Origin: an uncultured Bacteroidales bacterium
GTDB taxonomy: Bacteria > Bacteroidota > Bacteroidia > Bacteroidales > WCHB1-69
Direction: 5' to 3'
Length of the DNA stretch: 64,000 bases
Assembly (NCBI GenBank): GCA_900316305.1
Contig: ONCM01000008.1
Coordinates: 6,991 to 70,990 of the forward strand
Notes under the pieces: generated by a model
Told to the model about the DNA's origin: nothing
Seen by the model: the letters and a program-made list of their open reading frames with translations, nothing else
Databases searched by the model: none
Translations under genes and position numbers: made by a program
Part shown: positions 3,684 to 58,400 of the stretch, piece by piece
Numbering within the stretch: the stretch's first letter is position 1
Layout: the number at the start of each line of letters is the position of its first letter

Positions 3684-5063
3684 CTAGTTACATCCGATAC
3701 AAATCTGGTCGCCCACACTATAACTGTTGATATTTCCGCTGTTCCGCTTGATGAGGATCTTCAGCTGGATACCATACTTTTGGGCAATATAACGATAGGT
3801 GTCACCCTCCTGCAACGTATGGTACGGCACAGGGGACTTCGTGCTCTTCATTTCGAGATAAATCACCTCATCCTCAATGGGTTCCGAACCGTCATAGACA
3901 TCATTGTAGAGGCGCAGGTTCTTCTCCGTCATCTGCAATGCAGTCGCTAGCTTTTGGTAGGTGTCGCCCGGACGAGCCAAGATGAATTTAGTCTTGTTGT
4001 TCTCATAAACCGGGCGGCTAGTATAAGGATAATAAGCTGATTTATAAGGTATTGCGTATGGATCTAACACAAAGACATTCAATCCGTTCACCTTCTCTGG
4101 CAATTTGTTAGATTCTTGCACCGCAGGCTTCGCAGGTTGTGTAACCTCTTGTTTCTGAACCTGCTGAGATTCTTGAACTGGTTTAGGCTGCTCTTTGGGC
4201 TTGTTGTTTTTTTCCACAATCACCTGGATGCCGTTCACCTCCATCGTGTCCGACTTCGCGGTTTTTTTCTTCGACTCTTCTTTGGGTTTTGGTTCCTCTT
4301 TGGGTTTCTGCTCTTGAACTTTCGGTTGAGCTACAGGAGCCTGCGCCTCAGGTTCTGCTTTAGGTTGGACGGGCTGTTTCGGCTCCACATTAGTCACCGT
4401 AGGCTTTGGAGCTGGAGTAGGAGAGGGTGTGGGTGTCGGCTTCGAGACCTGCGCCACATTTTGGTTCTCGCCCACCCCGATACGCTCCGGCTGGGGTTTT
4501 TGCATAGCTCGCAAAGCCACCGTGTCGCCCAACTTCTGCGCCACTTTGCGGTCATAATGCATCAGATAGTATTTCTCAATGATGGAAACCAACGTGTCGG
4601 CATATTTCGGATTGCCGGAAAAGCCAGCCTCCAAAAGTCCGTTAGCCCATGATTTGTAGTCTGTTATGGGATAATAGAACAACTTCACATAGCGGCTTCG
4701 GGTGGACAAAAACAGCGAATGGTCACGATAGGCCTCCGCATCGGTAGCGTATTTCCGATAGCAGTTCTCGTGATTCTTGTCGTTCGGGCGATAGTAAGTG
4801 TCGCCCTGCCACTCCTGCGTATGACACATGATGGCGAAATGGTTGTGACACTCGCGCACCAGGTCGTTGGTGCCCGCCTGCGACGCATAGATGGCCTGCG
4901 CCAACGTGATGCTCGCGGGAACTCCGTAGAGCTCCATCTCCTGCATCGCAAGATCCTTGTAATTGTCAATGTAATCATAAATGCGATCTTCCATCGTATA
5001 TTGGGCGAATCCGATGGACAACAGGCAAACAGCTGCCACTAAACAAAATATCTTTTTCATCAT
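3684..5063 (-). CDS. Secreted glucosaminidase-domain / LysM peptidoglycan hydrolase (long paralogue)
   Basis: Signal peptide. N-terminal N-acetylglucosaminidase-like region (NHFAIMCH, AYRDHSLFL). Pro/Lys/Glu/Gln-rich linker. C-terminal LysM-like repeats (GDTYxxLA, GDTYRYIAQKYG). Confidence 0.7.
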   Translation of the reverse strand: MMKKIFCLVAAVCLLSIGFAQYTMEDRIYDYIDNYKDLAMQEMELYGVPASITLAQAIYASQAGTNDLVRECHNHFAIMCHTQEWQGDTYYRPNDKNHENCYRKYATDAEAYRDHSLFLSTRSRYVKLFYYPITDYKSWANGLLEAGFSGNPKYADTLVSIIEKYYLMHYDRKVAQKLGDTVALRAMQKPQPERIGVGENQNVAQVSKPTPTPSPTPAPKPTVTNVEPKQPVQPKAEPEAQAPVAQPKVQEQKPKEEPKPKEESKKKTAKSDTMEVNGIQVIVEKNNKPKEQPKPVQESQQVQKQEVTQPAKPAVQESNKLPEKVNGLNVFVLDPYAIPYKSAYYPYTSRPVYENNKTKFILARPGDTYQKLATALQMTEKNLRLYNDVYDGSEPIEDEVIYLEMKSTKSPVPYHTLQEGDTYRYIAQKYGIQLKILIKRNSGNINSYSVGDQICIGCN

Positions 5064-5070
5064 TCTAAAA

Positions 5071-6084
5071 TTATCGTCTTAATAAAATCTGGTCTCCCGG
5101 ATGAATAACGGAATTTTCTTCCAACATATTGTATTTCAACAGATAATGAAGCTGAACCCCATAGCGTTGCGAGATGTAACGCAATGTCTCGCCTTCCTGC
5201 ACGGTATGAATCCTGACGGCATTTCCGCGCGCCTTGGCCTCCACATACACGATCTCATTCTCCACGGGTTCATCGTTCGGCCCCGCATCGTTAAACTTAC
5301 GCAAATTGTCGGACATCACTAAAATATCTTGCGCAATTTTCTCGTAAGTATCTCCTTTTTCAGCAATTACAAAGTACGTATTATTGTTTTTGAACACTTT
5401 CCGATAAGTGAATGGACTCTGATCCGTGGGATACTCGCTGCCGATAGCGGTGAACACCTTCTTGCCGTGCTTGTTGCCGACAGGCTTGGTGGTAGGATTG
5501 GAAACCGGCTTCGTGTCCTGCGCAACAGGCTTGGTTTCAGCAACCGTAGCAGGCCAACCGCCATACTTTTGCTGGTAAAGCGTGTCCAGACGCGCAATGT
5601 TGAATCGCTCAATCAAACTGATAAGACGGTCAGCGTATTGGGGATTTGTGGCATAGCCGTCCTGCTTCAGCGTGCGGGCCCAGGATTGGTAATCCATGAT
5701 ATCCAGCTCAAACAGATTAGCATAGCGTTTCCGGGTGGTCAAGAAAAGCGAGTGGTCCGTGTAAGATTCTTCCACAGAGGCGTACTTGCGGAAACACTCC
5801 TGCAGCTCGTCATCGTCGATCAGGATAGTGTCACCCGTCCATTCGGTGTGGCACTTGATGCCAAAGTGGTTGTTGCCTTCCGTGGCCAGACGACTTTTCC
5901 CGCACGCGCTCTCGAAAATGCCCTGCGCCACCGTGATGCTGGCGGGAATCTTATATTCGTGCATCTTCTTCACCGCTACATCCGCAAAACGATCGATATA
6001 ATCGCGGATATCCTGCTCGTTGTACTGCGCAAAAACCGAAACGCAACCCAACAAAATGCCCAACAAACTAATGAGTTTCTTCAT
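5071..6084 (-). CDS. Secreted glucosaminidase-domain / LysM peptidoglycan hydrolase (short paralogue)
   Basis: Same architecture as 3684..5063 (NHFGIKCH, SYTDHSLFL, two LysM-like repeats). Lies 7 nt upstream of its paralogue. Confidence 0.7.
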   Translation of the reverse strand: MKKLISLLGILLGCVSVFAQYNEQDIRDYIDRFADVAVKKMHEYKIPASITVAQGIFESACGKSRLATEGNNHFGIKCHTEWTGDTILIDDDELQECFRKYASVEESYTDHSLFLTTRKRYANLFELDIMDYQSWARTLKQDGYATNPQYADRLISLIERFNIARLDTLYQQKYGGWPATVAETKPVAQDTKPVSNPTTKPVGNKHGKKVFTAIGSEYPTDQSPFTYRKVFKNNNTYFVIAEKGDTYEKIAQDILVMSDNLRKFNDAGPNDEPVENEIVYVEAKARGNAVRIHTVQEGETLRYISQRYGVQLHYLLKYNMLEENSVIHPGDQILLRR

Positions 6085-6122
6085 AACTGCTAACTACTAA
6101 CGACTAACTGCTAATTAGCTAA
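6085..6122. repeat. Heptad tandem repeat, AACTNCT family (5.4 units)
   Basis: AACTGCT AACTACT AACGACT AACTGCT AATTAGC TAA. Fills the whole ddl/next-gene spacer and includes the ddl stop codon. Confidence 0.9.
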
Positions 6123-11854: not shown

Positions 11855-11884
11855 TGTAGAGACGCGCTGCAGCACGTCTCTACA
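11855..11884 (+). terminator. Hairpin TGTAGAGACG-(CGCTGCAGCA)-CGTCTCTACA after truB (GTAG-hairpin family)
   Basis: 10-bp perfect stem that can extend by 2 bp inside the loop. An extra left-arm copy TGTAGAGACGCG at 11839-11850 contains the truB stop codon. Confidence 0.6.
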
Positions 11885-15367: not shown

Positions 15368-15838
15368 TTATCTGCTAGAAGAGACATTCGCAGTGATGGT
15401 GAGAATGGTCTCCGAAGGATAGGTGTTGGCACCCACCAAAATACGTTTCTCCACCTTGCCTTTCTGCCCCTTAGAATCGAACGTGACGGTGATCTCACCG
15501 CTTTCGCCCGGGCGAACCGGCGCTTTCGGGGGCTGCGAGGTCGTACACCCACAAGTAGCCTCCGAAGAATAAATAATCAGATTGGACTTGCCGGTGTTCT
15601 TAAATTTAAAAGCGTAAGTAAGACGCTCTCCCTCAATCACTTCGCCAAAATCGTAAGTGGTCTTTTCAAACGAGATGACCGGCATCTTCTCCGCCTCTTT
15701 GTCCGAAAGACCGGACGCCGTCTGCGGAATATGCACATCATCCACGGTGAAATCACCCTCCTTGGCCTGCTTCTGATGGCATCCACCGAATAAAAGCCCA
15801 ACAGTTACTATTGCCGTAATAATCCAAAATCTATTCAT
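15368..15838 (-). CDS. DUF1573 domain protein (lipoprotein-like)
   Basis: Signal peptide ending GGC; ATCGCTT motif and Ig-like beta pattern typical of DUF1573. Confidence 0.7.
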   Translation of the reverse strand: MNRFWIITAIVTVGLLFGGCHQKQAKEGDFTVDDVHIPQTASGLSDKEAEKMPVISFEKTTYDFGEVIEGERLTYAFKFKNTGKSNLIIYSSEATCGCTTSQPPKAPVRPGESGEITVTFDSKGQKGKVEKRILVGANTYPSETILTITANVSSSR

Positions 15839-15867
15839 AATTCAGCATTCATAATTCATCATTAATT
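15833..15867. repeat. Heptad tandem repeat, ATTCNNC family (5 units)
   Basis: ATTCATA ATTCAGC ATTCATA ATTCATC ATTAATT. Contains the nusB stop and the DUF1573 start codon. Confidence 0.9.
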
Positions 15868-23067: not shown

Positions 23068-23082
23068 TCCAATACATTACTT

Positions 23083-24306: not shown

Positions 24307-24384
24307 ATGGTTATGGGTCATGGGTTATAGGTTATTGAATGGTTAATGGTTAAATGGTCAATAGTCAACGGTCAACGGTCAACT
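24307..24384. repeat. Heptad-based tandem repeat, GGTTAWN/GGTCAAN family (about 11 units)
   Basis: ATGGGTC ATGGGTT ATAGGTT ATTGA ATGGTTA ATGGTTAA ATGGTCA ATAGTCA ACGGTCA ACGGTCA AC. Overlaps the aroB 3' end. Confidence 0.9.
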
Positions 24385-25743: not shown

Positions 25744-25776
25744 AACTACTAACTGCTAACTACTAACTGCTAACTA
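25744..25776. repeat. Heptad tandem repeat, AACTNCT family (4.7 units)
   Basis: AACTACT AACTGCT AACTACT AACTGCT AACTA. The first 32 nt are identical to 29170-29201. Confidence 0.95.
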
Positions 25777-26928: not shown

Positions 26929-26956
26929 GTAGAGACGCGCCATGGCACGTCTCTAC
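26929..26956 (-). terminator. Hairpin GTAGAGACG-(CGCCATGGCA)-CGTCTCTAC (GTAG-hairpin family)
   Basis: 9-bp perfect stem downstream of the S9 peptidase gene and upstream of lptF/G. The loop contains ATG 26943. Confidence 0.55.
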
Positions 26957-26961
26957 AAACC

Positions 26962-27010
26962 CTGTTAACCATTAACCTCAATAACCTATAACCAATAACC
27001 TATAACCATT
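26962..27010. repeat. Heptad-based repeat, GGTTAWN family in inverse orientation (NNTAACC units)
   Basis: TGTTAACC ATTAACC TCAATAACC TATAACC AATAACC TATAACC ATT. 26978-26993 is the exact reverse complement of 24323-24338. Confidence 0.9.
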
Positions 27011-29090
27011 ATTTCAGCCATTGATCCAACCACCTAAAGAACTCCCTCTGCCACAACATGGCGTTCTGCGGTGTAGAGACGAAGTGGCACTCCTCGGGGA
27101 AGAAGAGGAAACGGCTCGGAATGCCCTGCATCTGCGCGGCGTCGAAGGCCTGCATACCCTCGGTGTAGGGAATGCGGAAGTCCTTGCCGCCGTGGATGAC
27201 CAATATCGGGGTGTCCCAGTTGCCGACGAACTTATGCGGCGAAATGTTGTAGCTCGCCGGTACCGGATTCGCCCAATAGGGACCTCCGATGTCGTGGTTG
27301 GCGAAGAAGAGCTCCTCGGTGGTACCGTACCAACTTACTAAGTTGAACATGCCGCAGTGCGCGATGAACGCCTTGAAGCGCTTTTCGTGGTGGCCGGCGA
27401 GCCAATAGACGCTGAAGCCGCCGTAGCTGGCTCCCACACAGCCCAACCGGTTCTCGTCCACGTAAGGTTCTTTCGCCACATCGTCGATGGCGGCGAGGTA
27501 ATCCTTCATGTTCTGTCCACCATAATCACAGCTGATCTGATCGTTCCACTCGCTGCCGAAACCGGGCACGCCACGACGATTCGGCGCCACGATAATGTAG
27601 TCGTGTGCGGCCATCATCTGGAAGTTCCAACGGTAGGAGAAGAACTGGCTCACAGAGGATTGCGGACCACCTTGACAGTAGAGCAAAGCGGGATATTTCT
27701 TGGTGGAATCGAAGTTCGGGGGCAAAATCACCCACACGAGCATCTGCTTGCCGTCAGTGGTCTTCACCCAACGCTTCACCGTCTTCGCCGGCGTGATTTT
27801 GTCCAAAACATCCTTGTTGATGAAGCTCAGCTGTTTCACCGATTTGTCTTTCAAGTTGACAGCGTAAATTTCGGAAGGCTCCGCGTGCGTAGTACGTGTC
27901 ACAATCAGCTGACTTCCATCCACTTGCACAGTGTTGTAGTCGTAATCACCATGGGTGATTTGTTCGATGATACGCGATTCCACATCCATCTTATAGACAT
28001 GATGCGTGGCCTCGATGCAGCTGATGAAATAGACCGTTTTGCTGTCTTCGCTCCAGGAAAAGCCGGTGGCATCCTGATCGAAGTCGGTGCTGTAATCCTC
28101 TGCGGTGCCCGTCTGGAAGTCGTAGATCATCAAACTGTGCTTTTCCGACTCGAAGCCGTCGGTTTTCATGTTCCACCACACCATCTTCTTGCCGTCGGGG
28201 GAGATCACCGGGTCCATGTCGTAACCTTTGTTGAACTCCGTCAGATTCTGCGTGGTCTTCGTTTTCAGATCGTAGAGGTAAATATCGGTGTTGGTGCTCT
28301 CTGCGAACTCCTTACCTGTCAGCTTCTTACAGCAATAAACTAGTTTGCTGCCATCGGGAAGCCAGGCCACCTCCTCCATACCTCCGAACGGCGGGTTCGG
28401 GCAGTGGAATTTCTGGCCCTCCAGCAAATCCACGGCGTTATCCATGGAAGGGTAGTCGATCACGATAAGATGACTGTAAGTACCGTCGGCCCAATAGTTC
28501 CAATGACGGTACATCAGGTCGTCGTAAATCATAGCCTCCGCATCCGGCAAATCGGGGTAGCGTTCCTCGATGGTCTGTTCCAGCTGCACGTTTTGGAAAT
28601 AGCAAATGTGTTTCATGTCAGGCGCATAGCTGAAACCGTTGATGTCGCCATCCACATTGCTGATGGCTTTGGCGTTTTTGCCGTCAGGATCAGCTTCCCA
28701 AATCTGCATTCCTTTGTCGTTGGCGCGCAGGTAGGCGATTTTCTTGCCGTCGGGCCGCCAGATCGGCTGCATCTCGCTTTCCTCCGAAACCGTGATGCGG
28801 GTGGGTTCGCCGCCTGCGGCCGGCATGGTGTAAAGTTCCGTGTTGCCTTTGTTGACGCGGTAGTCGTAGTAGGTCACCGTGTAGAGCAGCGTCTTGCCGT
28901 CGGGAGAGACTTGCACGTCGCCCAAACGTCCGAGATACCAGAGGATTTTCTCGTCCATCACGCCCTTCGAGAAGTCGGGCGTTTCGCGGCTCTCCTTGTC
29001 AATCACCGCCGCCGTTTTCTCGTTCTTCGCTTGTTTACAACCACTTACCATTATCATAATTAGGGTTAAACAGAAAAATACTTTCTTCAT
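27009..29090 (-). CDS. S9-family serine peptidase lipoprotein (beta-propeller plus alpha/beta hydrolase)
   Basis: Lipobox MVSGC, TolB-like propeller repeats, nucleophile elbow GASYGG, and C-terminal IHGGKD...H. Confidence 0.85.
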   Translation of the reverse strand: MKKVFFCLTLIMIMVSGCKQAKNEKTAAVIDKESRETPDFSKGVMDEKILWYLGRLGDVQVSPDGKTLLYTVTYYDYRVNKGNTELYTMPAAGGEPTRITVSEESEMQPIWRPDGKKIAYLRANDKGMQIWEADPDGKNAKAISNVDGDINGFSYAPDMKHICYFQNVQLEQTIEERYPDLPDAEAMIYDDLMYRHWNYWADGTYSHLIVIDYPSMDNAVDLLEGQKFHCPNPPFGGMEEVAWLPDGSKLVYCCKKLTGKEFAESTNTDIYLYDLKTKTTQNLTEFNKGYDMDPVISPDGKKMVWWNMKTDGFESEKHSLMIYDFQTGTAEDYSTDFDQDATGFSWSEDSKTVYFISCIEATHHVYKMDVESRIIEQITHGDYDYNTVQVDGSQLIVTRTTHAEPSEIYAVNLKDKSVKQLSFINKDVLDKITPAKTVKRWVKTTDGKQMLVWVILPPNFDSTKKYPALLYCQGGPQSSVSQFFSYRWNFQMMAAHDYIIVAPNRRGVPGFGSEWNDQISCDYGGQNMKDYLAAIDDVAKEPYVDENRLGCVGASYGGFSVYWLAGHHEKRFKAFIAHCGMFNLVSWYGTTEELFFANHDIGGPYWANPVPASYNISPHKFVGNWDTPILVIHGGKDFRIPYTEGMQAFDAAQMQGIPSRFLFFPEECHFVSTPQNAMLWQREFFRWLDQWLK

Positions 29091-29145
29091 TATTCGTAAT
29101 CAAAATTTGTTTTGTCCTTTAAACAGACATTAAAAATTCAACCCG

Positions 29146-29153
29146 CAAAAGTA
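29146..29153 (-). promoter_or_regulatory. -7 box TACTTTTG (S9 peptidase 27009..29090)
   Basis: Context GAAAAAGTGTACTTTTGCGGG on the minus strand. Confidence 0.6.
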
Positions 29154-29169
29154 CACTTTTTCCCCATAT

Positions 29170-29204
29170 AACTACTAACTGCTAACTACTAACTGCTAAC
29201 TGTA
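29170..29204. repeat. Heptad tandem repeat, AACTNCT family (5 units), between divergent promoters
   Basis: AACTACT AACTGCT AACTACT AACTGCT AACTGTA. Confidence 0.95.
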
Positions 29205-29211
29205 AAAATCG

Positions 29212-29219
29212 TATCTTTG
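29212..29219 (+). promoter_or_regulatory. -7 box TATCTTTG (radical SAM - lplA)
   Basis: TAnnTTTG 22 nt upstream of ATG 29242. Confidence 0.6.
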
Positions 29220-29241
29220 CCGCCTGAAAAATCCATCCACA

Positions 29242-30138
29242 ATGATGATATTCTACTTAGGCAGCTGGTATTTCCAGACCAAATTCCTGAAACGGCGCAA
29301 ACCGCTGCAGACGGTGCTGTTCATCACCAACAGGTGCAACTTGTCGTGCTCGCACTGCAGCGTCTTTGACCACGAACACCCGACCGACAAAAGCTACGGG
29401 CAAATCCGCGAGGAACTGCAGTATTCTTACGGATTGGGATCCCGATTCGTCGATTTCGAGGGCGGCGAACCGACCCTCTGGCGCGACGGTGACCGTCGGA
29501 TCAACGACCTCATCGACCTCGCGCACGAAATCGGCTTTTTCACCACCACCGTGACTACCAACGCACAACAACCCTTCGCAGGGCTCAAAGCCAACTCGAT
29601 ATGGGTCAGCATGGACGGCATCCACGAATATCATGACGCCGTGCGGGGCCAGGGCACCTTCGACAAATTAGTGAAAAACGTGGATAGCTGCGGTCATAAA
29701 GCGCTGAGTGCCAATATGGTCATCGACTCCAACAATTACGTCAACGTGATGGAGACGCTGCAGTTTGTGAAGGAGCACCCTACCTTCAAGAGCATCGCCT
29801 TTAACTTCTATACCCCCGCCTTTTTCAAAGACGAAGATCCGCTGATTTTGGATTGGGACAAACGTGTTGAGTTGATTGATAAGTTGATAGAACAAAAGAA
29901 GAAACGGATGCCCATCATGAATTCCGTCTCGGGACTGAAACGGATGAAGGACCTGTCGTTTGAAAAGGTCTGCTGGATGTGCAACTACATCCTGCCCGAC
30001 GGCACGCGCCTGCCCGAATGCGTGGGCAAAAGCGCGGGTGTCTGCGACCAGTGCGGTTTCTGCATGGCCGGGGAAATGCGTTCGGTGATGGATTTTCGGC
30101 CGGATACGCTGATGGCGGGACTTGATCTTAGACGATGA
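29242..30138 (+). CDS. Radical SAM protein with C-terminal Cys-rich (SPASM/twitch-like) region, subfamily unknown
   Basis: CNLSCSHC (CxxxCxxC) at aa 32-39, GGEPTLW, and the C-terminal cluster CWMC...C...CDQCGFC. Confidence 0.75.
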   Translation: MMIFYLGSWYFQTKFLKRRKPLQTVLFITNRCNLSCSHCSVFDHEHPTDKSYGQIREELQYSYGLGSRFVDFEGGEPTLWRDGDRRINDLIDLAHEIGFFTTTVTTNAQQPFAGLKANSIWVSMDGIHEYHDAVRGQGTFDKLVKNVDSCGHKALSANMVIDSNNYVNVMETLQFVKEHPTFKSIAFNFYTPAFFKDEDPLILDWDKRVELIDKLIEQKKKRMPIMNSVSGLKRMKDLSFEKVCWMCNYILPDGTRLPECVGKSAGVCDQCGFCMAGEMRSVMDFRPDTLMAGLDLRR

Positions 30139-30333
30139 ATGAGCGATGAATGAACGATGAAAAACGATGAAATTCATCGACCAACATTCATCGATAAACA
30201 TTCATCGACCAACATTCATCGACCAACATTCATCGACCAACATTCATCGACCAACATTCATCGACCAACATTCATCGATAAACATTCATCGACCAACATT
30301 CATCGACAAAAATTCATCGACAAAAATTCATCG
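30133..30333. repeat. 14-bp tandem array (11 units, TTCATCG core x12) preceded by 4 inverted CGATGAA copies
   Basis: I counted the units directly (see findings). A perfect 15-nt palindrome, CGATGAAATTCATCG, lies at 30165-30179. Confidence 0.95.
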
Positions 30334-30339
30334 ATCAAA

Positions 30340-31335
30340 ATGGAGAACATACGATATATCACCCTCAACAGCAACTCCCCGTACCACAATCTGGCGACGG
30401 AGGAGTATCTGTTGCAGCAAACCAAAGACAATGTTTTCATGTTGTGGCAGAACGACAACACGATTGTCATTGGTCGTCACCAGAACACGGCGGCGGAAAT
30501 CAACCAAGAATACGTTGACAGTCACCATGTTAATATAGTAAGAAGACAGACTGGCGGTGGTGCGGTTTTCCACGATATCGGGAATCTCAACTTCTCGTTC
30601 ATCCAGAACATTGAACCTGGTAGCAAGGAGATTGATTTCCTGAAGTATTTGCAACCGATTGTGGATGCGCTGCAGTCGTTAGGTGTTCCGGCAGAGTTTT
30701 CCGGACGCAACGATCTGGTGATTGACGGCAAGAAGATCTCCGGCAACGCCATGATGTTTTACGAAAACCGTGTGTTGGAGCACGGAACGCTGCTGTTCTC
30801 GTCTCAGATGTCAGATGTGGCGAACGCCCTCAAGGTTGATCCGAGCAAATTCGATGACAAGGCGGTGAAGTCTGTGCGCAGTCGCGTGACCAACATTTCC
30901 GAACATCTTCCCGAACCCATGACCGTTTTGCAGTTCAGAGACTACCTGATGGACTTCATTATGAAGCAGAACCAAATGACTGAACTGCAGAATCTTACCA
31001 ACGAAGAAGAGGCGGTTGTGGAGCAGCTCATGAAGAACAAATACCAGACTTGGGAGTGGAACTACGGCAAATCGCCGGAGTATTCAATGAACAAGAAAAT
31101 GCGGACGAAGGGCGGCTCCGTGCAAGTGATTGCCGATATCCAAAAAGGCTATATCCGCGACTTGCAATTCTTCGGCGACTTCTTCGGCGAAAAAGACCCG
31201 CAAGAACTTGCAGACCTGCTAATTGGAACTCGAATGGACAAAGATTCCGTTGCCAATGCCCTTACGGACGTGAACATCAATGATTATTTCCATAATGTCA
31301 CGAAAGAGGAAATAATCCATTTGTTAACCGCATAA
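30340..31335 (+). CDS. lplA: Lipoate--protein ligase A
   Basis: RRQTGGGAVFHDIGNLNFSF and GKKISGNA motifs. Start set at ATG 30340; the in-frame upstream 61 codons are just the 14-bp DNA repeat read through. Confidence 0.85.
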   Translation: MENIRYITLNSNSPYHNLATEEYLLQQTKDNVFMLWQNDNTIVIGRHQNTAAEINQEYVDSHHVNIVRRQTGGGAVFHDIGNLNFSFIQNIEPGSKEIDFLKYLQPIVDALQSLGVPAEFSGRNDLVIDGKKISGNAMMFYENRVLEHGTLLFSSQMSDVANALKVDPSKFDDKAVKSVRSRVTNISEHLPEPMTVLQFRDYLMDFIMKQNQMTELQNLTNEEEAVVEQLMKNKYQTWEWNYGKSPEYSMNKKMRTKGGSVQVIADIQKGYIRDLQFFGDFFGEKDPQELADLLIGTRMDKDSVANALTDVNINDYFHNVTKEEIIHLLTA

Positions 31336-31338
31336 TAT

Positions 31339-31357
31339 GGGCGTATGCGATACGCCC
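31339..31357 (+). terminator. Hairpin GGGCGTAT-GCG-ATACGCCC after lplA, followed by CTACA
   Basis: 8-bp stem and 3-nt loop. The right arm plus flank, CGCCCCTACA, is identical to the right arm of hairpin 60428-60457. Confidence 0.5.
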
Positions 31358-31382
31358 CTACAATAACCACAAATAACCGTTT

Positions 31383-32033
31383 ATGAAACTGATTGTATTC
31401 GACCTCGACGGCACTCTCATCAATTCGCTGGAAGATTTGGCGGATTCGGCTAACCATGTGCTGGAACAGCACGGCTTTCCCATTCATCCAGTGGATGCTT
31501 ACCGCTATTTTGTGGGCGACGGCGTGCGCAAACTCATTGAGCGCATATTGCCAGCGGAGCAACGCACCGACGCGCAGATCGAACAGTGCAAAGCCGAATT
31601 TGTAGATTACTACAAAATCCACATGGAAGACAAAACTTCTGTTTATGAGGGAATTACAGAATTGCTCAAAGCGTTGAAAGCCCGTGGGTTGAAGATTGCC
31701 GTGGCCACGAACAAAGTGCACAGCGCCGTGGCCCCGCTGATGGCCAAATATTTCCCGGAGATTCGTTTCGACTCGATGATCGGCCAGCGGGAGGGCATTC
31801 CCGTGAAGCCCGCCCCGCAAATCATGTTCGACATTCTGAAAGAGACGGGTTGTCAGCCTTCTGAAGCGCTTCATGTGGGCGACACCGCCACGGACATGCA
31901 ACTTGCGCACAACGCAGTGGTCACGCCCGTGGGCGTACTCTGGGGCTACAGACCATTGGAAGAATTGCAGGAGGCTGGTGCACGCTATATTATTGAGCAT
32001 CCCCTTGATTTATTGGAAATCCTTGACCATTGA
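31383..32033 (+). CDS. HAD-superfamily hydrolase (phosphoglycolate-phosphatase-like)
   Basis: Motif I FDLDGTL, motif II ATNK, motif III GDTATD. Confidence 0.8.
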   Translation: MKLIVFDLDGTLINSLEDLADSANHVLEQHGFPIHPVDAYRYFVGDGVRKLIERILPAEQRTDAQIEQCKAEFVDYYKIHMEDKTSVYEGITELLKALKARGLKIAVATNKVHSAVAPLMAKYFPEIRFDSMIGQREGIPVKPAPQIMFDILKETGCQPSEALHVGDTATDMQLAHNAVVTPVGVLWGYRPLEELQEAGARYIIEHPLDLLEILDH

Positions 32034-32075
32034 TTTTGGCTATTGGCTGTTGGCCGTTAGCTGTTGACTATCAAG
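32034..32075. repeat. Heptad tandem repeat, NTTRGCY family (6 units), left arm
   Basis: TTTTGGC TATTGGC TGTTGGC CGTTAGC TGTTGAC TATCAAG, starting immediately after the HAD gene stop. Confidence 0.9.
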
Positions 32076-32086
32076 TACGCCCCCAA

Positions 32087-32121
32087 AACTACTAACTACT
32101 AACTACTAACTACTAACTTCT
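32087..32121. repeat. Heptad tandem repeat, AACTNCT family (5 units), right arm
   Basis: AACTACT x4 then AACTTCT. Includes the ispF stop codon. Confidence 0.95.
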
Positions 32122-32592
32122 CACTATCGTGGCCGCTGCCGTGGCCGCAATACCTTCGCCAGCACCCGTGAAGCCCATCTTCTCGTTGGTCTTGGCTTTC
32201 ACCGCTATTCGGTCGGACTCGACCTTCAGCAGTTCGGAAAGCCTGCCGATAATCGCATCGACATGCGGTTTCATCTTCGGCTTTTCCAAGATGAGCGTAC
32301 AGTCCAAGTTGTTGACCTTCCAGCCTCTTTCCGCAAGGAGCTCCACCACTTTGGCGAGCAGTTTAGTGCTGTCCACGTTTTTCCAAGTGGGGTCGTTGTC
32401 CGGGAAGTAGGTACCGATGTCTTTAAGTCCTGCCGCGCCCAAAAGTGCGTCGCAAACGGCATGGATTAGCACGTCGCCATCAGAATGAGCGGCCAACCCC
32501 AGTTCGTATGGAATGACAATGCCCCCAATGACCAAGGGTCTGTCGGGGGCAAATCTATGGGAATCGTATCCAAATCCTACGCGAAAATCCAT
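32113..32592 (-). CDS. ispF: 2-C-methyl-D-erythritol 2,4-cyclodiphosphate synthase
   Basis: GFGYDSHRF and AHSDGDVLIHA metal-binding motifs; 159 aa. Confidence 0.93.
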   Translation of the reverse strand: MDFRVGFGYDSHRFAPDRPLVIGGIVIPYELGLAAHSDGDVLIHAVCDALLGAAGLKDIGTYFPDNDPTWKNVDSTKLLAKVVELLAERGWKVNNLDCTLILEKPKMKPHVDAIIGRLSELLKVESDRIAVKAKTNEKMGFTGAGEGIAATAAATIVRS

Positions 32593-32635
32593 AATTTTGG
32601 CTTTTGGCTGTTAGCTGTTGGCTTTGGCTGTCTGG
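32593..32635. repeat. Heptad tandem repeat, GCTKTTR family (about 6 units), left arm
   Basis: AATTTTG GCTTTTG GCTGTTA GCTGTTG GCTTTG GCTGTCT, starting 1 nt upstream of the ispF ATG. Confidence 0.85.
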
Positions 32636-32640
32636 TACAA

Positions 32641-32672
32641 CCTGCTAACTGCTAACTACTAACTGCTAACTA
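32641..32672. repeat. Heptad tandem repeat, AACTNCT family (4.5 units), right arm
   Basis: CTGCTAA CTGCTAA CTACTAA CTGCTAA CTA. Includes the porV stop. 32647-32675 is identical to 25751-25779. Confidence 0.95.
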
Positions 32673-34051: not shown

Positions 34052-34100
34052 ATTCTACATTCTGCATTCTTCATTCTGCATTCTTCATTCTACATTATAG
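34052..34100. repeat. Heptad tandem repeat, ATTCNNC family (7 units)
   Basis: ATTCTAC ATTCTGC ATTCTTC ATTCTGC ATTCTTC ATTCTAC ATTATAG. The last unit contains the porU stop. Confidence 0.95.
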
Positions 34101-47789: not shown

Positions 47790-50700
47790 GTGATGTCTAA
47801 AGTTCGGTTTCTGATCCTGTTCCTGCTCTGTTGGTGGACGTTGGCGGCGAGAGCGGCCACGACCGCTTCCGACACCTCCTTCCATTTTGTCTGCGCCGAC
47901 CCGACGGCCATACTCACGGTTGACAGCGCACAGAGCTACCATTGGAGCACCAACGAAGCTACACGATCTATAACAGTTTCAAATGCAGGAATTTACACCG
48001 TAACTTCCACCCACTTCGACGGCAACCAGACTGTTGATACGTTCCAAGTTGCGAACATCAAAACCAACAAGGTCTCCAACATCTCCATTCCCAACATGTG
48101 TGCCGGAGGAGTTTACCCCATCACCATCGGCCACGACTCCATCAACGACATTATCATCGAATCCCACGAAGCCTCCATGGTCTTGAGCGAGACCATTTTC
48201 CTGCCCGACGGCGTCTCTTGCAATCCTTACGGATGTTCATACCGTTCCCCCCTCACTTTCACGAACTTCTCTGAAAATGACATCGTCACCTCCGTTGACG
48301 ACATCCTGTATGTACGATTGAACCTCGAACACTCATACGCAGCAGATTTGTACATCAACCTCACCTGTCCCAATGGGCAAAAAGCAGATATATTGCGGTT
48401 TGGCGGCTCATCAAACTCTAGTTGTAGCTCCAATATTCCGTTGAGTTCGAGAGGTTGGCTGTCGGGAAACAATGCCAGTGGTGGGACTGATTTTGGATTG
48501 GCGAACATCACAGGCGACTGGGACAGCAACCCCGACTGTACCCCTACTCCTTCCGGAACAGGATGGAACTACTGTTGGTCCAACAACTCAACTTACGGAT
48601 ATGTCTCTGGAGACGGAAGGATTTATCGGTCGGCAAATGTTCACGGCGGCCACTTCGATTCCTCCAATGTGGCTAACCATTCACAATTCTACCATCCCGA
48701 CCAGTCCTTTCAGGGCCTTGTGGGTTGCCCGCTGAACGGATCCTGGTACATAGAGGTGATGGACGGTTTCTCCCAGAACAATGGCTACCTGTTCGAATGG
48801 GAGCTGGCACTTGCCTCCGATGTGCAAACGGAGTATTCGGATGTGGTGCGCACTGAGTTGGATGGGCCGTGGGTGACCACCCTCAGCAACTCTTCCTTTG
48901 TGATCACCCCTCCTGCCGACCTGCCTTACGACACCACCGTCGATTACACGTTTCAATTCTTTAACGATTACGGATGCTCGTATGACACCATCGTGGCCGC
49001 CACTTTTTTTGCGAAAAGCCAGGTGATCATCGACACAATTGCCTGCGACAGCCTCCTTTGGAAAGGCAAAACCTATCGGTCAGACACTTCCTTCCTCTAT
49101 AAGTACAAGAACATTCATGGGTGCGACAGTCTTGTGACTGTCAATATACATGTGTTTCCCACACAAGCTCCCTCCATTTCTGGACCGTACTACTTCTGTC
49201 CGGACTCGTTTGCCGTACTCACTGCCAGCACTGCCGCCACATACCTTTGGAACACTGGCGACACCAGCCAATCCATCACCGTCAATGAACCGGGAACCTA
49301 TTCCGTCGTTGTCACCGACACGAACGGTTGTTCACCGGGATCATCCGCAACATTTCAGCTGTCATCAGCTGACAATCCTATTGTTGACGCATACCTGTCG
49401 GATATCACTGCCGGCGACACGCTTTGGGGCGTAATGGGGACAGTGGTTGGAGACAACTTGCAATATATCAGTCCACAAACCACCCTCCGCCGCGATGAAA
49501 CTATTTTTCTCCCCGACGGAGTGCCTTGCGATCCCTACGGGTGCTCATACCAAGCTTCGCTTGACTTTACCGGCTTTTCGGATTCCACAACCATTACGTC
49601 AGCCAACGACATCCGTTACGTCCGGTTGAAGATGGAACACTCCTATATCCGAGACCTATATATCAACTTAACCTGTCCCAATGGACAAAACGCCATCATA
49701 TTGAAAAAAGCGATTACTTCCAGCGATGCCTTCGGACAATGTATCTCCAACATCCCCTCGGACGGTCGCGGATGGCAAAGCGGCAGCAACGTCGAAGGGA
49801 AGGTACTGCTTGGATATGCCTACTACTATGCAGACAACACAGACATTTGCAATCCTAACGCGCCCACCAACCGACCCGGTACGGGCTGGAACTACTGTTG
49901 GTCGAACAACGACACGGAAGGGTTCGGTTATGCCCCCGGCGACGGCAGTTTGATATACCGTACCGCCAATTCGCATTTGCGCACGGTCTTGGGCAACAGT
50001 AGAAAAGTGGTGGATTCCTCCGATGTGGCCGCAGGGTCGCAATTCTACCATCCGGACGAGTCGTTCGACAGCTTGGTGGGATGTCCTATCAATGGCACTT
50101 GGACTGTGGAAGTAATGGACGGACTCAATCATGATAACGGGTATCTCTTTTCTTGGGAAATCTCATTTGGAGGTCAAATCACTCAGACAGAACCGCCTGC
50201 AGTTACCCAGACCCACTGTACCGGTCCATGGATTACCATGCTCACCGACTCCACCTTCTTCATCAATCCCCCTGATACCCTTGCCAATGACACGGTAGTG
50301 GGATATACCTTCACCGTTATCAATGAAATAGGATGTTCCTACGATACAACTGTTTACATAAACGTATATACGAATAAGATCACCGACTTATACGATACGG
50401 TTTTCGTCTCGGAGCTTCCCTTCGTATGGCATGGTATAACCTTCACTGGTCCGGACACCAAAGTCACCACCTCGCAGACCATTCACGGTTTGGACAGCTT
50501 GATTTACATGCACTTGTCGGTCATTTATCCGTTCGACACAGTGGTTTGCGCCAACAACCTGCCGTTATATTGGCACGGCCATACTTTCATGGGGGCAGAC
50601 ACGGTAAATCTCTCCTATCCAGTGAACGACGCAGACAGCATTGAAATCCTTGCCGTTTCGCTCATGCCCATCGACATAGACACGATACCGGTTTTCGCCT

Positions 50701-53700
50701 GTTTCGATTTTACTTGGCATGGCGCAACCTATTATCAATCTGGTGATTACACGTTCAACACCCTCAATATCCACGGCTGTGACTCCACTGTCATCCTCCA
50801 TCTTACCCTTTTCGACCTTGATACGACCCACATTCCCATAAATGCCTGTAGCAGCTATACTTGGCACGATTCTACCTATTATCAATCTGGTGATTATACC
50901 TTTGACACTCTCAATATCCACGGCTGCGATTCCACCGTCATTCTTCATCTCTCCATTTTCCATCCTGACACAACCGATATTCCCATGAGTGCCTGCGAGC
51001 AATACGTTTGGCATGATTCAACCTATTATCAATCTGGCGATTATACCTTCGACACAATCAATATCCACGGTTGTGACTCCACTGTCATCCTCCATCTCTC
51101 TCTTTTCAATACCGACACAACCCATATTCCCATGAGTGCCTGCGAGCAATACATCTGGCGAGATTCAACCTATTATCAATCTGGAGATTACACGTTTGAC
51201 ACCCTCAATATCCACGGTTGCGACTCCACCATCATTCTCCATCTCACTCTATTTAATTCCGACACAATCCATATTCCCGTGAATGCCTGCGAGTATTACA
51301 CTTGGCATGATTCAACCTATTTTCAATCTGGTGATTACATATTTGACACCCTTACTATCCATGGCTGTGATTCTACTGTCATCCTTCATCTCTCCATTTT
51401 CCACCCTGACACAACCGAAATTCCCATAAGTGCCTGCGAGCATTACACTTGGCATGATTCAACCTATTTTCAATCTGGTGATTACACGTTCGACACCCTT
51501 ACTATCCACGGTTGTGATTCCACTGTCATCCTTCATCTTACCATTTTAGAAGCTGACCAAACCTCTATTTTTGACACGGCCTGCGGGCATTTCACTTGGC
51601 ACGATGTAACTTATTACCAATCTGGCGATTACTCGTTCGACACCCTCAATATCCATGGTTGTGACTCCAGCGTTATCCTTCATTTGACCATCTACCCTAT
51701 TCCAGAGACTCATATTTTGGGGCCTGCAATTCTTTGTGCGGACTCGTTTGCCATTTTGGCTGTGGACAGTGGGTATACCTATTTGTGGAACACCGGTGAC
51801 ACCACGCGGCAGGTCACGATTACCCATCCGGGACTGTACAGTGTGCTTTGCAGAGACAGCAACAGCTGTGAAATCATCGCCACACATCGGGTGGTTTTGG
51901 CACACGCAACCCCTATCGCCGCCATGAACATTCCCACAATGTGCGCAGGTATGGATGACACGATTTCCATTGGTTATCAAACGGTTTCTACCATCGTGCT
52001 CAGCAGCATGGAGGAGGATTTGCCACTGGATTACGACACCATTACCAACGTAAGCCATGCGACTTTATCAGGGCCTTGGGTGTCCCCAATCCCCAATTCC
52101 GACACTGCTTTCCTGCTTTCACCGCCCGGCACGCTGCTGAACGACACGACTGTCCATTACGCCCTCCATTTGACAGACGACTTCGGATGTGGTTACGACA
52201 CCGCTTTCGACATACTGGTTCATGCGCATCATCTGCTCCCCATTGACACTATCGTTTGCAATGCATTTACCTGGAACGGAATCACTTACACCAGTTCTGG
52301 GCTCTACAAACAACCCGAAATAAACCCCAATGGATGTACCGACACTATTGTCATACAACTGACGGTCAACCACAGCGCTTCCTCGGAGGACACCTTGATA
52401 CTTGTCGAAAATGATCTTCCGTACTATTTTGCGCCAACAGATACTCTTTTTGGAATAGATTCACCCTCTGAGTTCCAATTCGACTATACCATACCCTCTC
52501 CACATCTTTGTGATTCAACTGTACACCAGACCGTTATCATCTACTGGAACATCGCGCAGACTTTCGACACTACGGTTTGCGCCAATGCCTTGCCTTTGAG
52601 TTGGCACGGGCACACGTTCACGGGTGCGGGCGCGGTCACCGACACCATGCACACCGTTCACAACAGCGATAGTCTGGTCACCTTGATCGTGCATGTGAAC
52701 AGTCTGGCTATTTCCACCAACATCGTCACCCATGTCAACTGTTTTGGAGACTCAACGGGTGCGGTGACGGCAACGGTGGCAGGCGGTATTGCACCGTATA
52801 ACTATCTGTGGTCCAACTCTTCCGGTACTATCATTTCCACCACACCGACGGCTGACCACCTGCCCGCTGGAACATACATTTTCCACGTCACTGATTCACT
52901 TGGATGCACTGCCCAAAATACCGAAAACGTGAACACGCTGCACGCCGAAATGCTACCGGGAAGTATTGCCAGCAATCAGGATGTGTGCAATAGCGATGAA
53001 CTACAGGGATTCACCGGCACAGTCGCTTCAGGAGGTGATAACAGTGTGTACCAATGGCAGATACACTCCCTTGACAACGCAGAATGGAGCGAGGCGCCAG
53101 GTATCCACAACACTCAAAACTACAATTTTCCACAGACGGTAATATCCTCATTTTCATTGCGGAGAGCCTGGATCAGTCAAAGTTGCGGAAGTCGGTACAG
53201 CGACACTGTTGTGGTCCATTTCTGGCCAACGCATCGGGACACCCTCACCGACCATGTCTGTCAAAACGAACCTTACACAGAGAACGGTTTTAACATTTCC
53301 GCCGACGAGACTTCCGAACCTGGCTTGCTAACGGAGGAAAACGTCTATCCTACCATGCATTGTGACAGCATTATCGTGCTGCTGCTCACCGTAAACCCCA
53401 CCTACGAAGAATCTTTCGAAGATGAGGTTTGCGAAGGGTCGAACTATACCGGACATGGATTCTACGTCAACGCCATAGAAACCATCGGAACCGAAACGCT
53501 GGATAAAACACTGACTTTACAGAGCGAACAAGGCTGCGACAGTACGCTGCGGCTTCATCTTTCCATCATTGATACGGCCGTTCACATTGTCTCCTACACC
53601 CCCGATTTTTGCGAAGAGATGTCGACACAGCTGTCTGTAGTTACGGAAATGCCTGACTACGTGTGGAGCACAGGCGAACAAACGACTCATATTACCGTAA

Positions 53701-58355: not shown

Positions 58356-58400
58356 GTATCTTGAAAAGAATATTGTATATCTTTATTGTTGACGATTGGT

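Follow-up and report, generated by a model that had tools for sequence, protein, structure and literature searches.

The window analysed here is a 64-kb stretch of DNA from an uncultured rumen Bacteroidales bacterium, and all coordinates are positions in this window. At the locus studied, a radical-SAM gene is followed by lplA, and the spacer between them carries a large array of short repeats. The features are the following:

29212..29219, + strand: TATCTTTG, a -7 promoter box of the Bacteroidetes type found by pattern scan, 30 nt before the radical-SAM ATG
29242..30138, + strand: radical-SAM gene, 298 aa (Pfam PF04055, E 5e-14)
30139-30339, + strand: radical-SAM/lplA spacer, 201 nt
30133..30171, + strand: four forward CGATGAA copies, starting at 30133, 30144, 30155 and 30165 (spacing 11/11/10 nt)
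30133..30207, + strand: predicted tiered RNA hairpin, forward copies 1-3 with inverse units 3-1 (9, 9 and 7 bp)
30165..30179, + strand: perfect 15-nt palindrome CGATGAAATTCATCG (CGATGAA-A-TTCATCG) where the forward copies meet the inverse ones
30172..30339, + strand: inverse array of twelve 14-nt units, each ATTCATCGA plus 5 nt
30340..31335, + strand: lplA, lipoate-protein ligase, 331 aa (TIGR00545, 430 bits against a cut-off of 280)

The first CGATGAA copy holds the last sense codon and the stop codon of the radical-SAM gene (CGA TGA), the stop TGA lying at 30136-30138. Tandem Repeats Finder (TRF) describes the forward arm with a period of 11 and 3.7 copies, and every AUG of the spacer sits within the forward CGATGAA copies. 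In the inverse arm, whose main unit is ATTCATCGACCAAC, TTCATCG is found first at 30173 and then at an exact 14-nt period to 30327 (n=12), the 9-nt core ATTCATCGA being invariant in 12 of the 12 units. Their 5-nt parts are CCAAC (seven units), TAAAC (two), CAAAA (two) and TCAAA (one); in the phase used by an earlier, sequence-only reading of this DNA, the units are ACCAAC (seven), ATAAAC (two) and ACAAAA (two). The terminal 6 nt, ATCAAA, adjoin the lplA ATG at 30340, and the longest stretch of identical units is 70 bp. The inverse array is made of 40% A, 30% C, 23% T and 7% G and contains no ATG, GTG or TTG over 30172..30339. The sequence-only reading had described the four CGATGAA copies with their 11/11/10 spacing, the overlap with the stop codon, the palindrome, and the twelve TTCATCG with their exact period, unit counts and end 6 nt before the lplA ATG, all of which were recovered at the same positions; the pseudo-repeat HRPTFIDQHSSTNI also reads as it had reported. 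Its 16 TCGA sites have to be brought down to 12, which lie in the inverse units only, the forward copies reading ACGA or GCGA.

For the main array, TRF gives a period of 14, 11.9 copies, 92% matches and a score of 271, which is the highest among the non-coding arrays of the window (runner-up, 76). Moreover, ATTCATCGA occurs 13 times in the window and 12 of these copies belong to the array, for 1.05 expected and a maximum of 3 in shuffled sequences. The sole copy outside the array falls inside a gene. The array therefore shows the head-to-tail repetition well beyond chance that defines a minisatellite or VNTR.

The product of lplA carries the Pfam domains LplA-B_cat and Lip_prot_lig_C. For the radical-SAM protein, no NCBIfam model reached its cut-off, and a named subfamily was rejected, the best match scoring 56 bits for a cut-off of 306. 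TATCTTTG is the sole box of its type upstream of both genes. The sequence-only reading had seen no TAnnTTTG box between them, and our pattern scan agrees, finding neither TAnnTTTG nor TAnnTTT between 29243 and 30345. No -7 box was found either in the radical-SAM/lplA spacers of 13 sister species. In two species where lplA has another upstream neighbour, TAtcTTTG stands 44-59 nt before the lplA ATG, and the same cassette as the TATCTTTG box stands before lplA in contig L009. A scan of 29000-31500 for sigma-70 promoters and intrinsic terminators gave counts equal to shuffle expectation and no + strand site in the spacer; a terminator-like match at the palindrome is on the - strand only. Furthermore, the hairpin is followed by ACCAACAUUC and not by the U tract which, after a G+C-rich hairpin, characterizes Rho-independent terminators. 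Rfam 15 gave nothing real, either at gathering scores over the whole window or at E<=1 over 29950-30500, its matches being chance-level eukaryotic miRNA and snoRNA models far below gathering. Since the spacer has no -7 box, the array is probably transcribed with both genes. Transcription as an intercistronic spacer, as proposed earlier, is thus probable: the box is absent here and in 13 sister species and present with the other neighbour. The radical-SAM gene and lplA are probably co-transcribed through the spacer.

The identical array (4+12 copies, 201-nt spacer) was found in the window and in contigs L001 and L003. In L002, whose flanks are 99.5% identical, the 12 units are arranged in another order, with one 15-nt unit besides, and 8 of the 37 differences from the window over 7 kb lie in the array. 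In L089 (96.2% identical over 11 kb), the spacer measures 160 nt and holds 5+8 copies; that of L084, whose lplA is 88% identical in nucleotide sequence, measures 119 nt and holds about 4 forward and 6-7 inverse copies. Unit number and order thus differ at the same locus in close genomes, as in VNTRs, and the variation that the sequence-only reading had anticipated exists between lineages (window, 12 units; L002, 12 reordered units; L089, 8; L084, 6-7). All indels between L089 and the window lie in short gene spacers except one (1 bp at 23075), and those inside heptad arrays include +14 at 24352 and +21 at 26987. The ATTCATCGA core is kept in all L089 units and in all L084 units but the last, ATTAATCGA. 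The ATG-proximal unit ATTCATCGATCAAA is identical in three variants, and the repeat family persists at the locus across lineages with lplA only 88% identical. To judge from these comparisons, this persistence and the identical ATTCATCGATCAAA unit could reflect constraint rather than neutrality.

Tandem repeats are often mishandled by short-read assemblers, and L094 and L097, both short contigs, break off at or within the array, which would fit an assembly artefact; these breaks are also compatible with length heterogeneity. When the radical-SAM and HAD proteins were used to look for further strain variants, the two long contigs came up again, together with two short ones broken at the array. 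However, the array was recovered from other samples and at different k-mer sizes, k127 and k87, although the k127 contig may be the source of the window. Thus, a 64,301-bp contig of ERZ932073, possibly that source, is 100% identical over the 6,996 bases compared, array included, and a 2,102-bp contig of ERZ1029110 has the identical array. These two metagenome contigs speak against the artefact for which the sequence-only reading had left room. Moreover, orthologous variants come from three further assemblies, and the k-mers used exceed the 70-bp run of identical units in length. On the evidence of these assemblies, the array is real and no artefact of assembly. An inserted mobile element (MITE or REP) would be expected in multiple dispersed copies with conserved ends, but the array occupies one locus in the window, and ACCAAC-type units were found only at the orthologous locus in a metagenome scan. 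Because the locus is single-copy and the motif runs on from the upstream stop codon with no sign of insertion, we rejected a mobile-element insertion. An origin as artefact or inserted element is hardly credible.

The variants also bear on a phase-variable contingency locus, in which a change of one unit would shift the frame of an extended LplA or the spacing of a promoter and turn lplA on or off. As had been noted from the sequence, the array leaves two of the three forward frames open, one of them in phase with lplA; our reading places the start of the latter at an ATG at 30157. Unit changes shift this frame since 14 is not a multiple of 3, and lineages do differ in unit number. However, the spacer length modulo 3 is 0, 1, 1 and 2 in the four variants, with lplA intact and a conserved MENIRY/MEKIRY start in all of them. 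The upstream in-frame ATG is absent in L089 and located elsewhere in L002 (-174) and L084 (-96), and the ATG at 30340 does not depend on the upstream frame. In addition, the LplA start MENIRY aligns with the start of the relatives' proteins, and the gene callers of other assemblies give 331 aa. The array lies between a stop codon and the lplA ATG, not in a reading frame, and no promoter elements flank it. We rejected an N-terminally extended LplA starting at 30157 because neither its frame nor its ATG is conserved among the variants, and because MEN/MEK is likewise the start in the relatives' proteins. A contingency locus appears largely refuted by these natural variants, and a frame-based switch of this kind is extremely improbable.

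The radical-SAM/lplA pair is kept in 13 sister species, with spacers of 32-176 nt that carry unrelated hexamer or heptamer arrays or palindromes (n=13). Four of the 13 have only TAGTCA-type hexamers, with no evident self-complementarity as judged by inspection and not by folding. More generally, arrays with a period of 6-8, 13-15 or 21 reach a density of 3.3 per 10 kb in contigs L004-L020 of this clade, for 0.28-0.47 in outgroups, and the best period is 7 or 14 in 12 of the 34 scored intergenic regions of the window. The heptad ATTCATC is a member of the ATTCNNC family, and its complement GATGAAT fits the GNNGAAT arrays found after other stop codons; several heptad arrays of the window share the period-14 superstructure. 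The earlier suggestion that the array belongs to a window-wide heptad phenomenon is supported by this membership and superstructure. The array is the largest of many short repeats located in the gene spacers of an uncultured rumen Bacteroidales clade. About 1.5% of the sampled DNA around the locus consists of tandem repeats based on 6-7 nt, mostly in short gene spacers, and a rumen Bacteroidales clade with such repeats is apparently undescribed.

This context is also relevant to a sequence-specific DNA- or RNA-binding protein that would recognize ATTCATCGA, or the TCGA core, every 14 nt. All 12 units of the window share the 9-nt core unchanged, and it is kept in L089 and, ATTAATCGA excepted, in L084. 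Moreover, 14-mers with the same core are found in unrelated metagenome contigs (L085/L090, L086 and L088), but it was the search pattern that picked these matches out. For TAACTGA heptads lying before start codons, binders of the S1, Csp or CsrA-like kind have been proposed (MacGregor 2015, PMC4679880). However, recent slippage alone would give high core identity, and the only other copy of the core in 64 kb is inside a gene. In addition, since the units in the orthologous spacers of the 13 sister species are unrelated, the motif has not been conserved along with the gene pair. The protein-binding-site array proposed by the sequence-only reading is therefore not borne out and is highly unlikely.

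In silico, the segment 30130-30215 folds with a dG of -28.1 kcal/mol (z -7.8, MFE frequency 0.43). The main partners of forward copies 1-4 in the full-length ensemble are units 6-3, and the pairing probability of all four copies is 0.94-1.0. The sequence-only reading had expected CGAUGAA and UUCAUCG to form many alternative helices; folding does give alternative sets of units, with one dominant register (about 0.75) and others at 0.05-0.2 each. The forward copies are predicted to be paired in 4 of the 4 natural variants, with a mean unpaired probability of about 0.2, and the predicted accessibility of the start region is equal across them (0.57-0.58). The predicted helices, of 7-9 bp, are split by asymmetric internal loops of 2 by 5 nt. 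Folded alone, the array gives a z of -1.25 and an open centroid, no better than shuffles. Further repeat-armed hairpins are predicted at 32590-32672 and 58249-58360 (z about -4). We rejected the hairpin as a conserved feature of the spacer because four sister species carry only hexamer arrays.

Control of lplA at the RNA level is possible. By analogy with hmw1A of Haemophilus influenzae, the repeat number could act as a rheostat: the tiered hairpin would be processed, or would impede the polymerase or the ribosome, and the copy numbers would set the output of lplA relative to that of the radical-SAM gene. Expression of hmw1A is inversely proportional to the number of (ATCTTTC)n repeats and requires a 5'-UTR hairpin and RNase III (PMC12721329). 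The stability of the predicted hairpin, its pairing in all four variants, the recurrence of repeat-armed hairpins in the window and the different copy numbers of both arms between lineages agree with such a role. However, short helices with 2 by 5 nt loops are a poor double-stranded substrate, and the predicted start accessibility is constant. Furthermore, lplA is a housekeeping gene and not a host-interaction gene, and in four sister species a hexamer array alone, with no evident hairpin, lies between the same genes. We consider the rheostat unlikely.

Rho prefers about 70-80 nt of C-rich, G-poor, unstructured and untranslated RNA. With 30% C, 7% G and a C/G ratio of 3.1-4.8 in 78-nt windows, which is in the top 0.4% of the window, the 168-nt array has the composition generally known for rut sites. 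It is a candidate site, and this ratio suggests a possible specific role in Rho loading. Termination would then occur before or within lplA, and the length of the array would set the polarity between the cistrons. Moreover, the array has three YC dimers per 14-nt unit, folds no better than shuffles, and would not be covered by ribosomes since it has no start codons. However, the C-rich composition is not conserved: the sister-species spacers have 6-29% C, and in most of them G is roughly as frequent as C or more frequent; many other heptad arrays of the window have a G/T-rich sense strand. A Rho-loading platform is very doubtful. More broadly, the heptad arrays of the whole clade might be evolvable setters of expression ratios in operons, with unit-changing hairpins and Rho-loading C-rich tails as heritable knobs, the radical-SAM/lplA array being the most developed of them. 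If this quite improbable view were true, the copy number of the array would set the amount of lipoate ligase made per radical-SAM transcript.

We consider it fairly probable that the array is a hypervariable non-coding minisatellite that was born locally by slippage and is tolerated as an intercistronic spacer, at most tuning lplA. Its origin can be traced to the upstream stop codon. In relatives, the radical-SAM protein ends in LSLRG*; the ending of the window, LDLRR*, is coded by CGATGA, and the repeat thus includes the last radical-SAM codon. L084 encodes LSLRG*, ending as GGATGA and followed directly by AATTCATCG. The seed of the minisatellite would be the stop-codon sequence (G/C)GATGAA and its complement, both arms having been expanded in place by replication slippage or unequal exchange. 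The forward arm, of 11-nt period, would have reached 4-5 copies, and 6-12 copies would have formed in the inverse arm, the 14-nt unit of which is made of two heptads, ATTCATC and GACCAAC. The sequence comparisons point to replication slippage, and the process would follow a clade-wide habit of filling short intergenic spacers with 6-7-nt tandem repeats that turn over quickly.

Once transcribed from the radical-SAM promoter, the radical-SAM/lplA mRNA would include the spacer. The forward copies would pair with 3-4 inverse units into a tiered hairpin just after the upstream stop codon, and the surplus units would form an unstructured, A/C-rich, G-poor and AUG-free leader up to the lplA ATG. In Bacteroidetes, initiation is favoured by A at -3, -6, -12 and -13 and by weak structure (PMC6847099); the lplA ATG is preceded by A at -1 to -3 and -6, and by T, not A, at -12 and -13. 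Ribosomes of Bacteroidia dispense with Shine-Dalgarno pairing, and what tunes initiation is weak structure together with adenines upstream; a spacer of this kind would therefore be tolerated. Changes in unit number would mostly shift the spacer length and the register of the hairpin, and would for this reason cause at most a gradual, heritable tuning of lplA and no on/off switch. Any effect on lplA expression would be small, and the array alone probably has small functional consequence; nothing shows a role as a dedicated switch.

Several known repeat systems resemble this minisatellite in part. Among the long simple sequence repeats (LSSRs) of prokaryotes, the class met most often is that of heptanucleotide units (Mrazek et al. 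2007, via PMC4679880). As far as that account describes them, LSSRs share with the array head-to-tail short units far beyond chance in the non-coding DNA of particular lineages, a period-7 base (the array unit being two heptads) and whole-unit indels between close strains. However, the survey as cited there covers units of 1-11 nt, whereas the array unit has 14 nt and, compared with the LSSRs so described, has a cap made of inverted core copies; the neighbouring period-7 arrays of the window and the forward copies, with their 11-nt period, are within the surveyed range. Uncultured rumen Bacteroidales are not among the LSSR-rich hosts in the literature that we found.

Direct repeats of the heptamer TAACTGA occur in marine Beggiatoaceae, Cyanobacteria and five Bacteroidetes (MacGregor 2015, PMC4679880). 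Like the arrays described here, they are intergenic heptads that vary by 7-nt-step indels between close strains. Many of them end a few nucleotides before a start codon, in genomes with few Shine-Dalgarno sites at that place; in the window, the lplA ATG at 30340 comes immediately after the last unit, which stops at 30339. Some neighbouring arrays of the window, at 6084, 29169 and elsewhere, have the units TAACTAC and TAACTGC, 1-2 nt apart from TAACTGA, but the unit ATTCATCGACCAAC is unrelated to it. Furthermore, TAACTGA genomes have one dominant heptamer, whereas many unit families coexist in the genome studied here, and many of its arrays lie directly after stop codons or in inverted pairs.

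The hmw1A/hmw2A tract is likewise a heptad-based repeat before a start codon, with natural copy-number variation. Its repeats pair with a complementary segment upstream or downstream and so make up one side of a long hairpin, a structure found only in silico for the array, whose transcription is deduced from its context. However, the effect on expression, RNase III cleavage and phase variation are demonstrated for hmw1A/hmw2A, whereas the array is known from sequence. In addition, both arms are repeats here, the helices are interrupted, the gene is a housekeeping one, and the array is intercistronic whereas the hmw tract lies downstream of its own promoter. Finally, the STRR heptamer repeats of cyanobacteria and the minisatellite-bearing MITE of Porphyromonas gingivalis (PMC4596501) are also short tandem intergenic units of particular lineages, and P. 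gingivalis is another member of Bacteroidales. STRR units of the same sequence recur genome-wide and the P. gingivalis minisatellite belongs to a multi-copy mobile element, whereas the array is single-copy and continuous with the stop codon of its neighbour.

Orthologous spacers with species-specific units offer a natural system for studying why heptamers are favoured as slippage units in bacteria. The clade also suits the question of whether such tracts tune expression where ribosomes disregard Shine-Dalgarno sites. This tract, together with about a dozen sister arrays, accounts for contig breaks in rumen MAGs and for spurious long ORFs such as 30157-31335. Moreover, the arrays can be used as strain-typing markers for this uncultured lineage.

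The array in front of lplA is one case of a clade-wide filling of gene spacers with short repeats, and this pattern is of more interest than the single array. It lies in the following setting (the copies and the palindrome come from direct reading of the sequence):

29242-30138, + strand: radical-SAM protein gene, no assigned subfamily
30133, 30144, 30155 and 30165, + strand: forward copies, CGATGAA
30165-30179, + strand: palindrome CGATGAAATTCATCG, fourth forward copy plus first inverse copy
30173 to 30327, + strand: 12 inverse copies, TTCATCG, at an exact 14-nt period
30340-31335, + strand: lplA, lipoate-protein ligase LplA (TIGR00545, 430 bits)

The radical-SAM stop codon (TGA, 30136-30138) lies inside the first forward copy and the lplA ATG (30340) directly abuts the final unit. 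Each 14-nt unit is ATTCATCGA followed by 5 nt (CCAAC in seven units, TAAAC in two, CAAAA in two and TCAAA in one). The sequence-only reading had described the copies, their spacing, the palindrome and the 14-nt period correctly, as well as the open frames and the pseudo-repeat peptide; the 16 TCGA sites that it counted are in fact 12, all in inverse units, since the forward copies have ACGA or GCGA instead. With Tandem Repeats Finder the array reaches a score of 271, versus 76 for the runner-up non-coding array of the window, and the 9-mer core ATTCATCGA has 12 copies in the array and one elsewhere in the window (1.05 expected). The radical-SAM protein, whose C-terminus is Cys-rich, reached no named NCBIfam subfamily (top match 56 bits versus a cut-off of 306). 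Its gene immediately precedes lplA in the window, and likewise at 13 of 15 loci from sister species with a readable upstream region (L004-L018), and a role in lipoate metabolism is possible. Downstream of lplA come genes for a HAD phosphatase, ispF, PorV and a PorU-like C25 peptidase; PorV and PorU assign the window to Bacteroidota. Every one of the nearest genomes is a MAG recovered from the rumen or from another part of the ruminant gut, and all carry the label Bacteroidales or Bacteroidetes.

Periodicity extends well beyond this locus. The best period is 7 or 14 in 12 of the 34 scored intergenic regions of the window, and self-identity is higher in intergenic than in coding sequence both at lag 7 (0.303 vs 0.238) and at lag 14 (0.297 vs 0.241). 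Around lplA, 17 close loci (LplA at least 78% identical) hold 3.3 arrays per 10 kb, i.e. 1.55% of bases, and 63 more distant loci hold 0.28-0.47 per 10 kb, counting periods 6-8, 13-15 or 21. Four heptad families recur, written here on the sense strand:

TTAGNAG, complement of AACTACT and TAACTGC
GNNGAAT, complement of ATTCNNC
TTGGCTA / TTAGCTA
TTAACCA / ATAACC

Several heptad arrays are organised in a superstructure of period 14, at which matches reach 100% as against about 85% at period 7, and the 14-nt unit itself splits into ATTCATC and GACCAAC. The tie to ATTCNNC heptads proposed earlier is right, since the forward copies, (C)GATGAAT, share the GNNGAAT family with the arrays found after two stop codons, that of the PorU-like gene (array 34052-34096) and that of the gene ending at 15862. 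About a dozen short spacers of the window consist largely of 7-nt tandem repeats drawn from a few unit families (6084-6114, 15833-15863, 24309-24383, 25744-25776, 26966-27008, 29169-29202, 32036-32126, 32595-32671, 34052-34096, 58253-58354 and 63245-63275). Just past stop codons, TTAGNAG is frequent on the sense strand, so that each of the three frames meets a TAG within 21 nt; GNNGAAT is another common unit there.

According to the summary in PMC4679880, Mrazek et al. (2007) described a lineage-specific excess of 5-11-nt repeats, heptamers being the commonest. MacGregor (2015, PMC4679880) reported TAACTGA heptads just 5' of start codons in Beggiatoaceae, Cyanobacteria and five Bacteroidetes including Paludibacter, with 7-nt-step indels among close strains, and left their function open. 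Like these heptads, our array is tandem, intergenic, start-proximal and polymorphic. However, its unit is 14 nt long, it is capped by inverted copies of its own core, and its host clade mixes many unit families. Full-text searches on heptanucleotide, long simple sequence and STRR heptamer repeats yielded no description of such repeats in rumen Bacteroidales.

Metagenome contigs carry the same array or variants of it at the orthologous locus:

Variants of the array (identity to the window; forward copies + inverse units; spacer length)
Window, L001 and L003: 100%; 4 + 12; 201 nt
L002 (ERZ28612999): 99.5% over 7 kb; 4 + 12, reordered, with one 15-nt unit; 202 nt
L089 (JGI contig): 96.2% over 11 kb; 5 + 8; 160 nt
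L084: lplA 88% (nt); about 4 + 6-7; 119 nt

An ERZ932073 contig (64,301 bp), which may be the window's own source, is 100% identical over the 6,996 bases compared, array included; an ERZ1029110 contig (2,102 bp), from another sample and another k-mer size, has an identical array. Two short contigs of other assemblies break inside or at the array, as expected of a repeat. That the array is an assembly artefact or a mobile element is scarcely credible. Unit number varies across related lineages (12 in the window, 12 reordered in L002, 8 in L089, 6-7 in L084). Furthermore, the window and L002 show 37 differences over 7 kb, of which 8 are in the 201-nt spacer, a density about nine times that of the remaining sequence. 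Another 21 are packed into a 230-bp stretch of the S9 peptidase gene (27894-28125) and resemble a small patch exchanged by recombination. Between the window and L089, all indels are in short gene spacers except 1 bp at 23075, and two of them (+14 at 24352 and +21 at 26987) are within heptad arrays. The slipped-strand contingency suggested earlier, i.e. a frame or promoter switch, is highly improbable, as the natural variants contradict it. Their spacer lengths modulo 3 are 0, 1, 1 and 2, the upstream ATG in frame with lplA is missing from L089 and has other positions in L002 and L084, and each of the four has an intact lplA; a reading-frame switch is therefore not involved.

The 13 sister species that keep the radical-SAM/lplA order have spacers of 32-176 nt, whose contents differ and are mutually unrelated across species:

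L011, L013 and L014: TAGTCA / TAGTTA hexamers running into a GTG start codon
L018: an array similar to these hexamers
L006 and L016: GAGACTT heptads, with inverted copies distally
L008: GTAGAGACGC...GCGTCTCTAC palindrome alone
L007 and L015: GTAGAGACGC...GCGTCTCTAC palindrome, then CATCATA / CGTCATA heptads
L004, L012 and L017: REP-like hairpins
L005: REP-like hairpins and GTCAAA hexamers

Hence, as judged by sequence comparison, the species have in common no conserved repeat sequence and no conserved hairpin. These unrelated units also weaken the earlier suggestion that the array offers sites to a sequence-specific binding protein, which we regard as improbable. A pattern scan found no TAnnTTTG box in any of the 13 spacers, whereas L009 and L010, with another gene upstream of lplA, have a TAtcTTTG box 44-59 nt before the ATG; therefore, co-transcription through a repeat-filled spacer is probably the conserved state. 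The window also lacks a box between the two genes, as had been noticed, and the sole one upstream of both, at 29212, precedes the radical-SAM ATG by 30 nt.

Other elements recur at these loci. The REP-like element AAGCAGCCTCGRAGAGGCAAAACGCACGRAGTGC...CCCCACA(N)TGTGGGG occupies the spacer of L004, L005, L012 and L017 (two copies in L017). A divergent promoter cassette, GCAAAAGTACACTTTTTCC...(AACTACT)n...AACTGTAAAAATnnTATCTTTGCCGCC, with the heptad array between two opposed -7 boxes, lies 5' of the radical-SAM gene in the window (29091-29241) and directly 5' of lplA in L009 (about 3880-3960). The palindromic element GTAGAGACG(N10)CGTCTCTAC, probably a dispersed hairpin element or terminator, recurs in the clade (window 11856-11883 and 26929-26956; L007 3935-3962, L008 3962-3989, L015 3899-3926, L010 3900-3927). 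It begins at the radical-SAM stop codon in three sister species, and its copy at 26929-26956 spans the ATG of an LptF/G-like gene.

The array was probably born locally, out of a palindrome located at the stop codon of the radical-SAM gene, and slippage would then have expanded both its forward and inverse arms. The radical-SAM C-terminus (30127-30138) reads LDLRR* in the window and L089, but most sister species have LSLRG* or a sequence close to it. L084 codes its LSLRG* ending as ...AGAGGATGA, followed directly by AATTCATCG, which makes a GATGAA/TTCATC palindrome on the stop codon. The window ending is AGA CGA TGA, and therefore the repeat unit now takes in the last sense codon; with codon and stop (CGA TGA) within its first copy, the repeat has altered how the gene ends. 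A mobile-element insertion is disfavoured as the origin, since a metagenome scan found ACCAAC-type units only at the orthologous locus. The ATTCATCGA core also occurs in 14-nt tandem units in unrelated metagenome contigs, among matches that the core pattern itself selected: L085/L090 (...AACCGA), L086 4472-4550 (...AACATC) and L088 841-900 (...TTATC), where the array adjoins GTTAGTT/GATGGTT heptads.

In the RNA, positions 30130-30215 (86 nt) are predicted to form a three-tier hairpin of 9, 9 and 7 bp (dG -28.1 kcal/mol, z -7.8; 0 of 200 shuffles as stable). All four forward copies are paired in the full-length ensemble (summed probability 0.94-1.0), mainly with inverse units 6, 5, 4 and 3 (about 0.75), other registers having 0.05-0.2 each. 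The alternative CGAUGAA/UUCAUCG helices expected from the sequence-only reading thus appear in silico, with one register dominant; over 30100-30360, the stretch it proposed to fold, z is -2.3 only and the MFE frequency 0.0002. A hairpin-based rheostat, by analogy with the hmw1A 5'-UTR tract of H. influenzae (PMC12721329), would be a possible but rather unlikely role. The array alone is predicted to be nearly unstructured (z -1.25, open centroid). It contains 40% A, 30% C and 7% G, and this extreme C/G ratio would suit a rut-like platform loading Rho, which we consider unlikely. A terminator scan found no intrinsic terminator on the + strand of the spacer, and the array matched no Rfam family.

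We favour, as moderately likely, a locally generated, fast-evolving minisatellite that is tolerated, and would be of generic use, as an intercistronic leader free of both structure and AUG. Indeed, the array lacks ATG, GTG and TTG, all six spacer ATGs being among the forward copies, and adenines occupy -1, -2, -3 and -6 relative to the lplA ATG. In Flavobacterium johnsoniae, SD-independent initiation is modulated by weak local structure together with adenines at -3, -6, -12 and -13 (PMC6847099); the array shows the weak structure and half of these adenines. Host ribosomes with no need of SD sites would tolerate such a leader, and if unit number affects lplA, it would do so gradually.

Two further repeat-armed hairpins of the window have a forward-plus-inverted heptad architecture like that of the lplA array: 32590-32672 (- strand, between PorV and ispF; z -3.8; arms TTAGCAG... 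/ ...GCTAAC/GCCAA) and 58249-58360 (between convergent genes; z -4.3 on + and -4.1 on -; arms TTGGCTA... / ...AGCCAAA). Moreover, an ORF of 2,090 aa (47790-54062) contains at 50711-51691 a tandem repeat with periods of 147/294/441 bp, all multiples of 3; it has up to 6.7 copies at about 80% identity and presumably encodes a domain repeated within a large surface protein.
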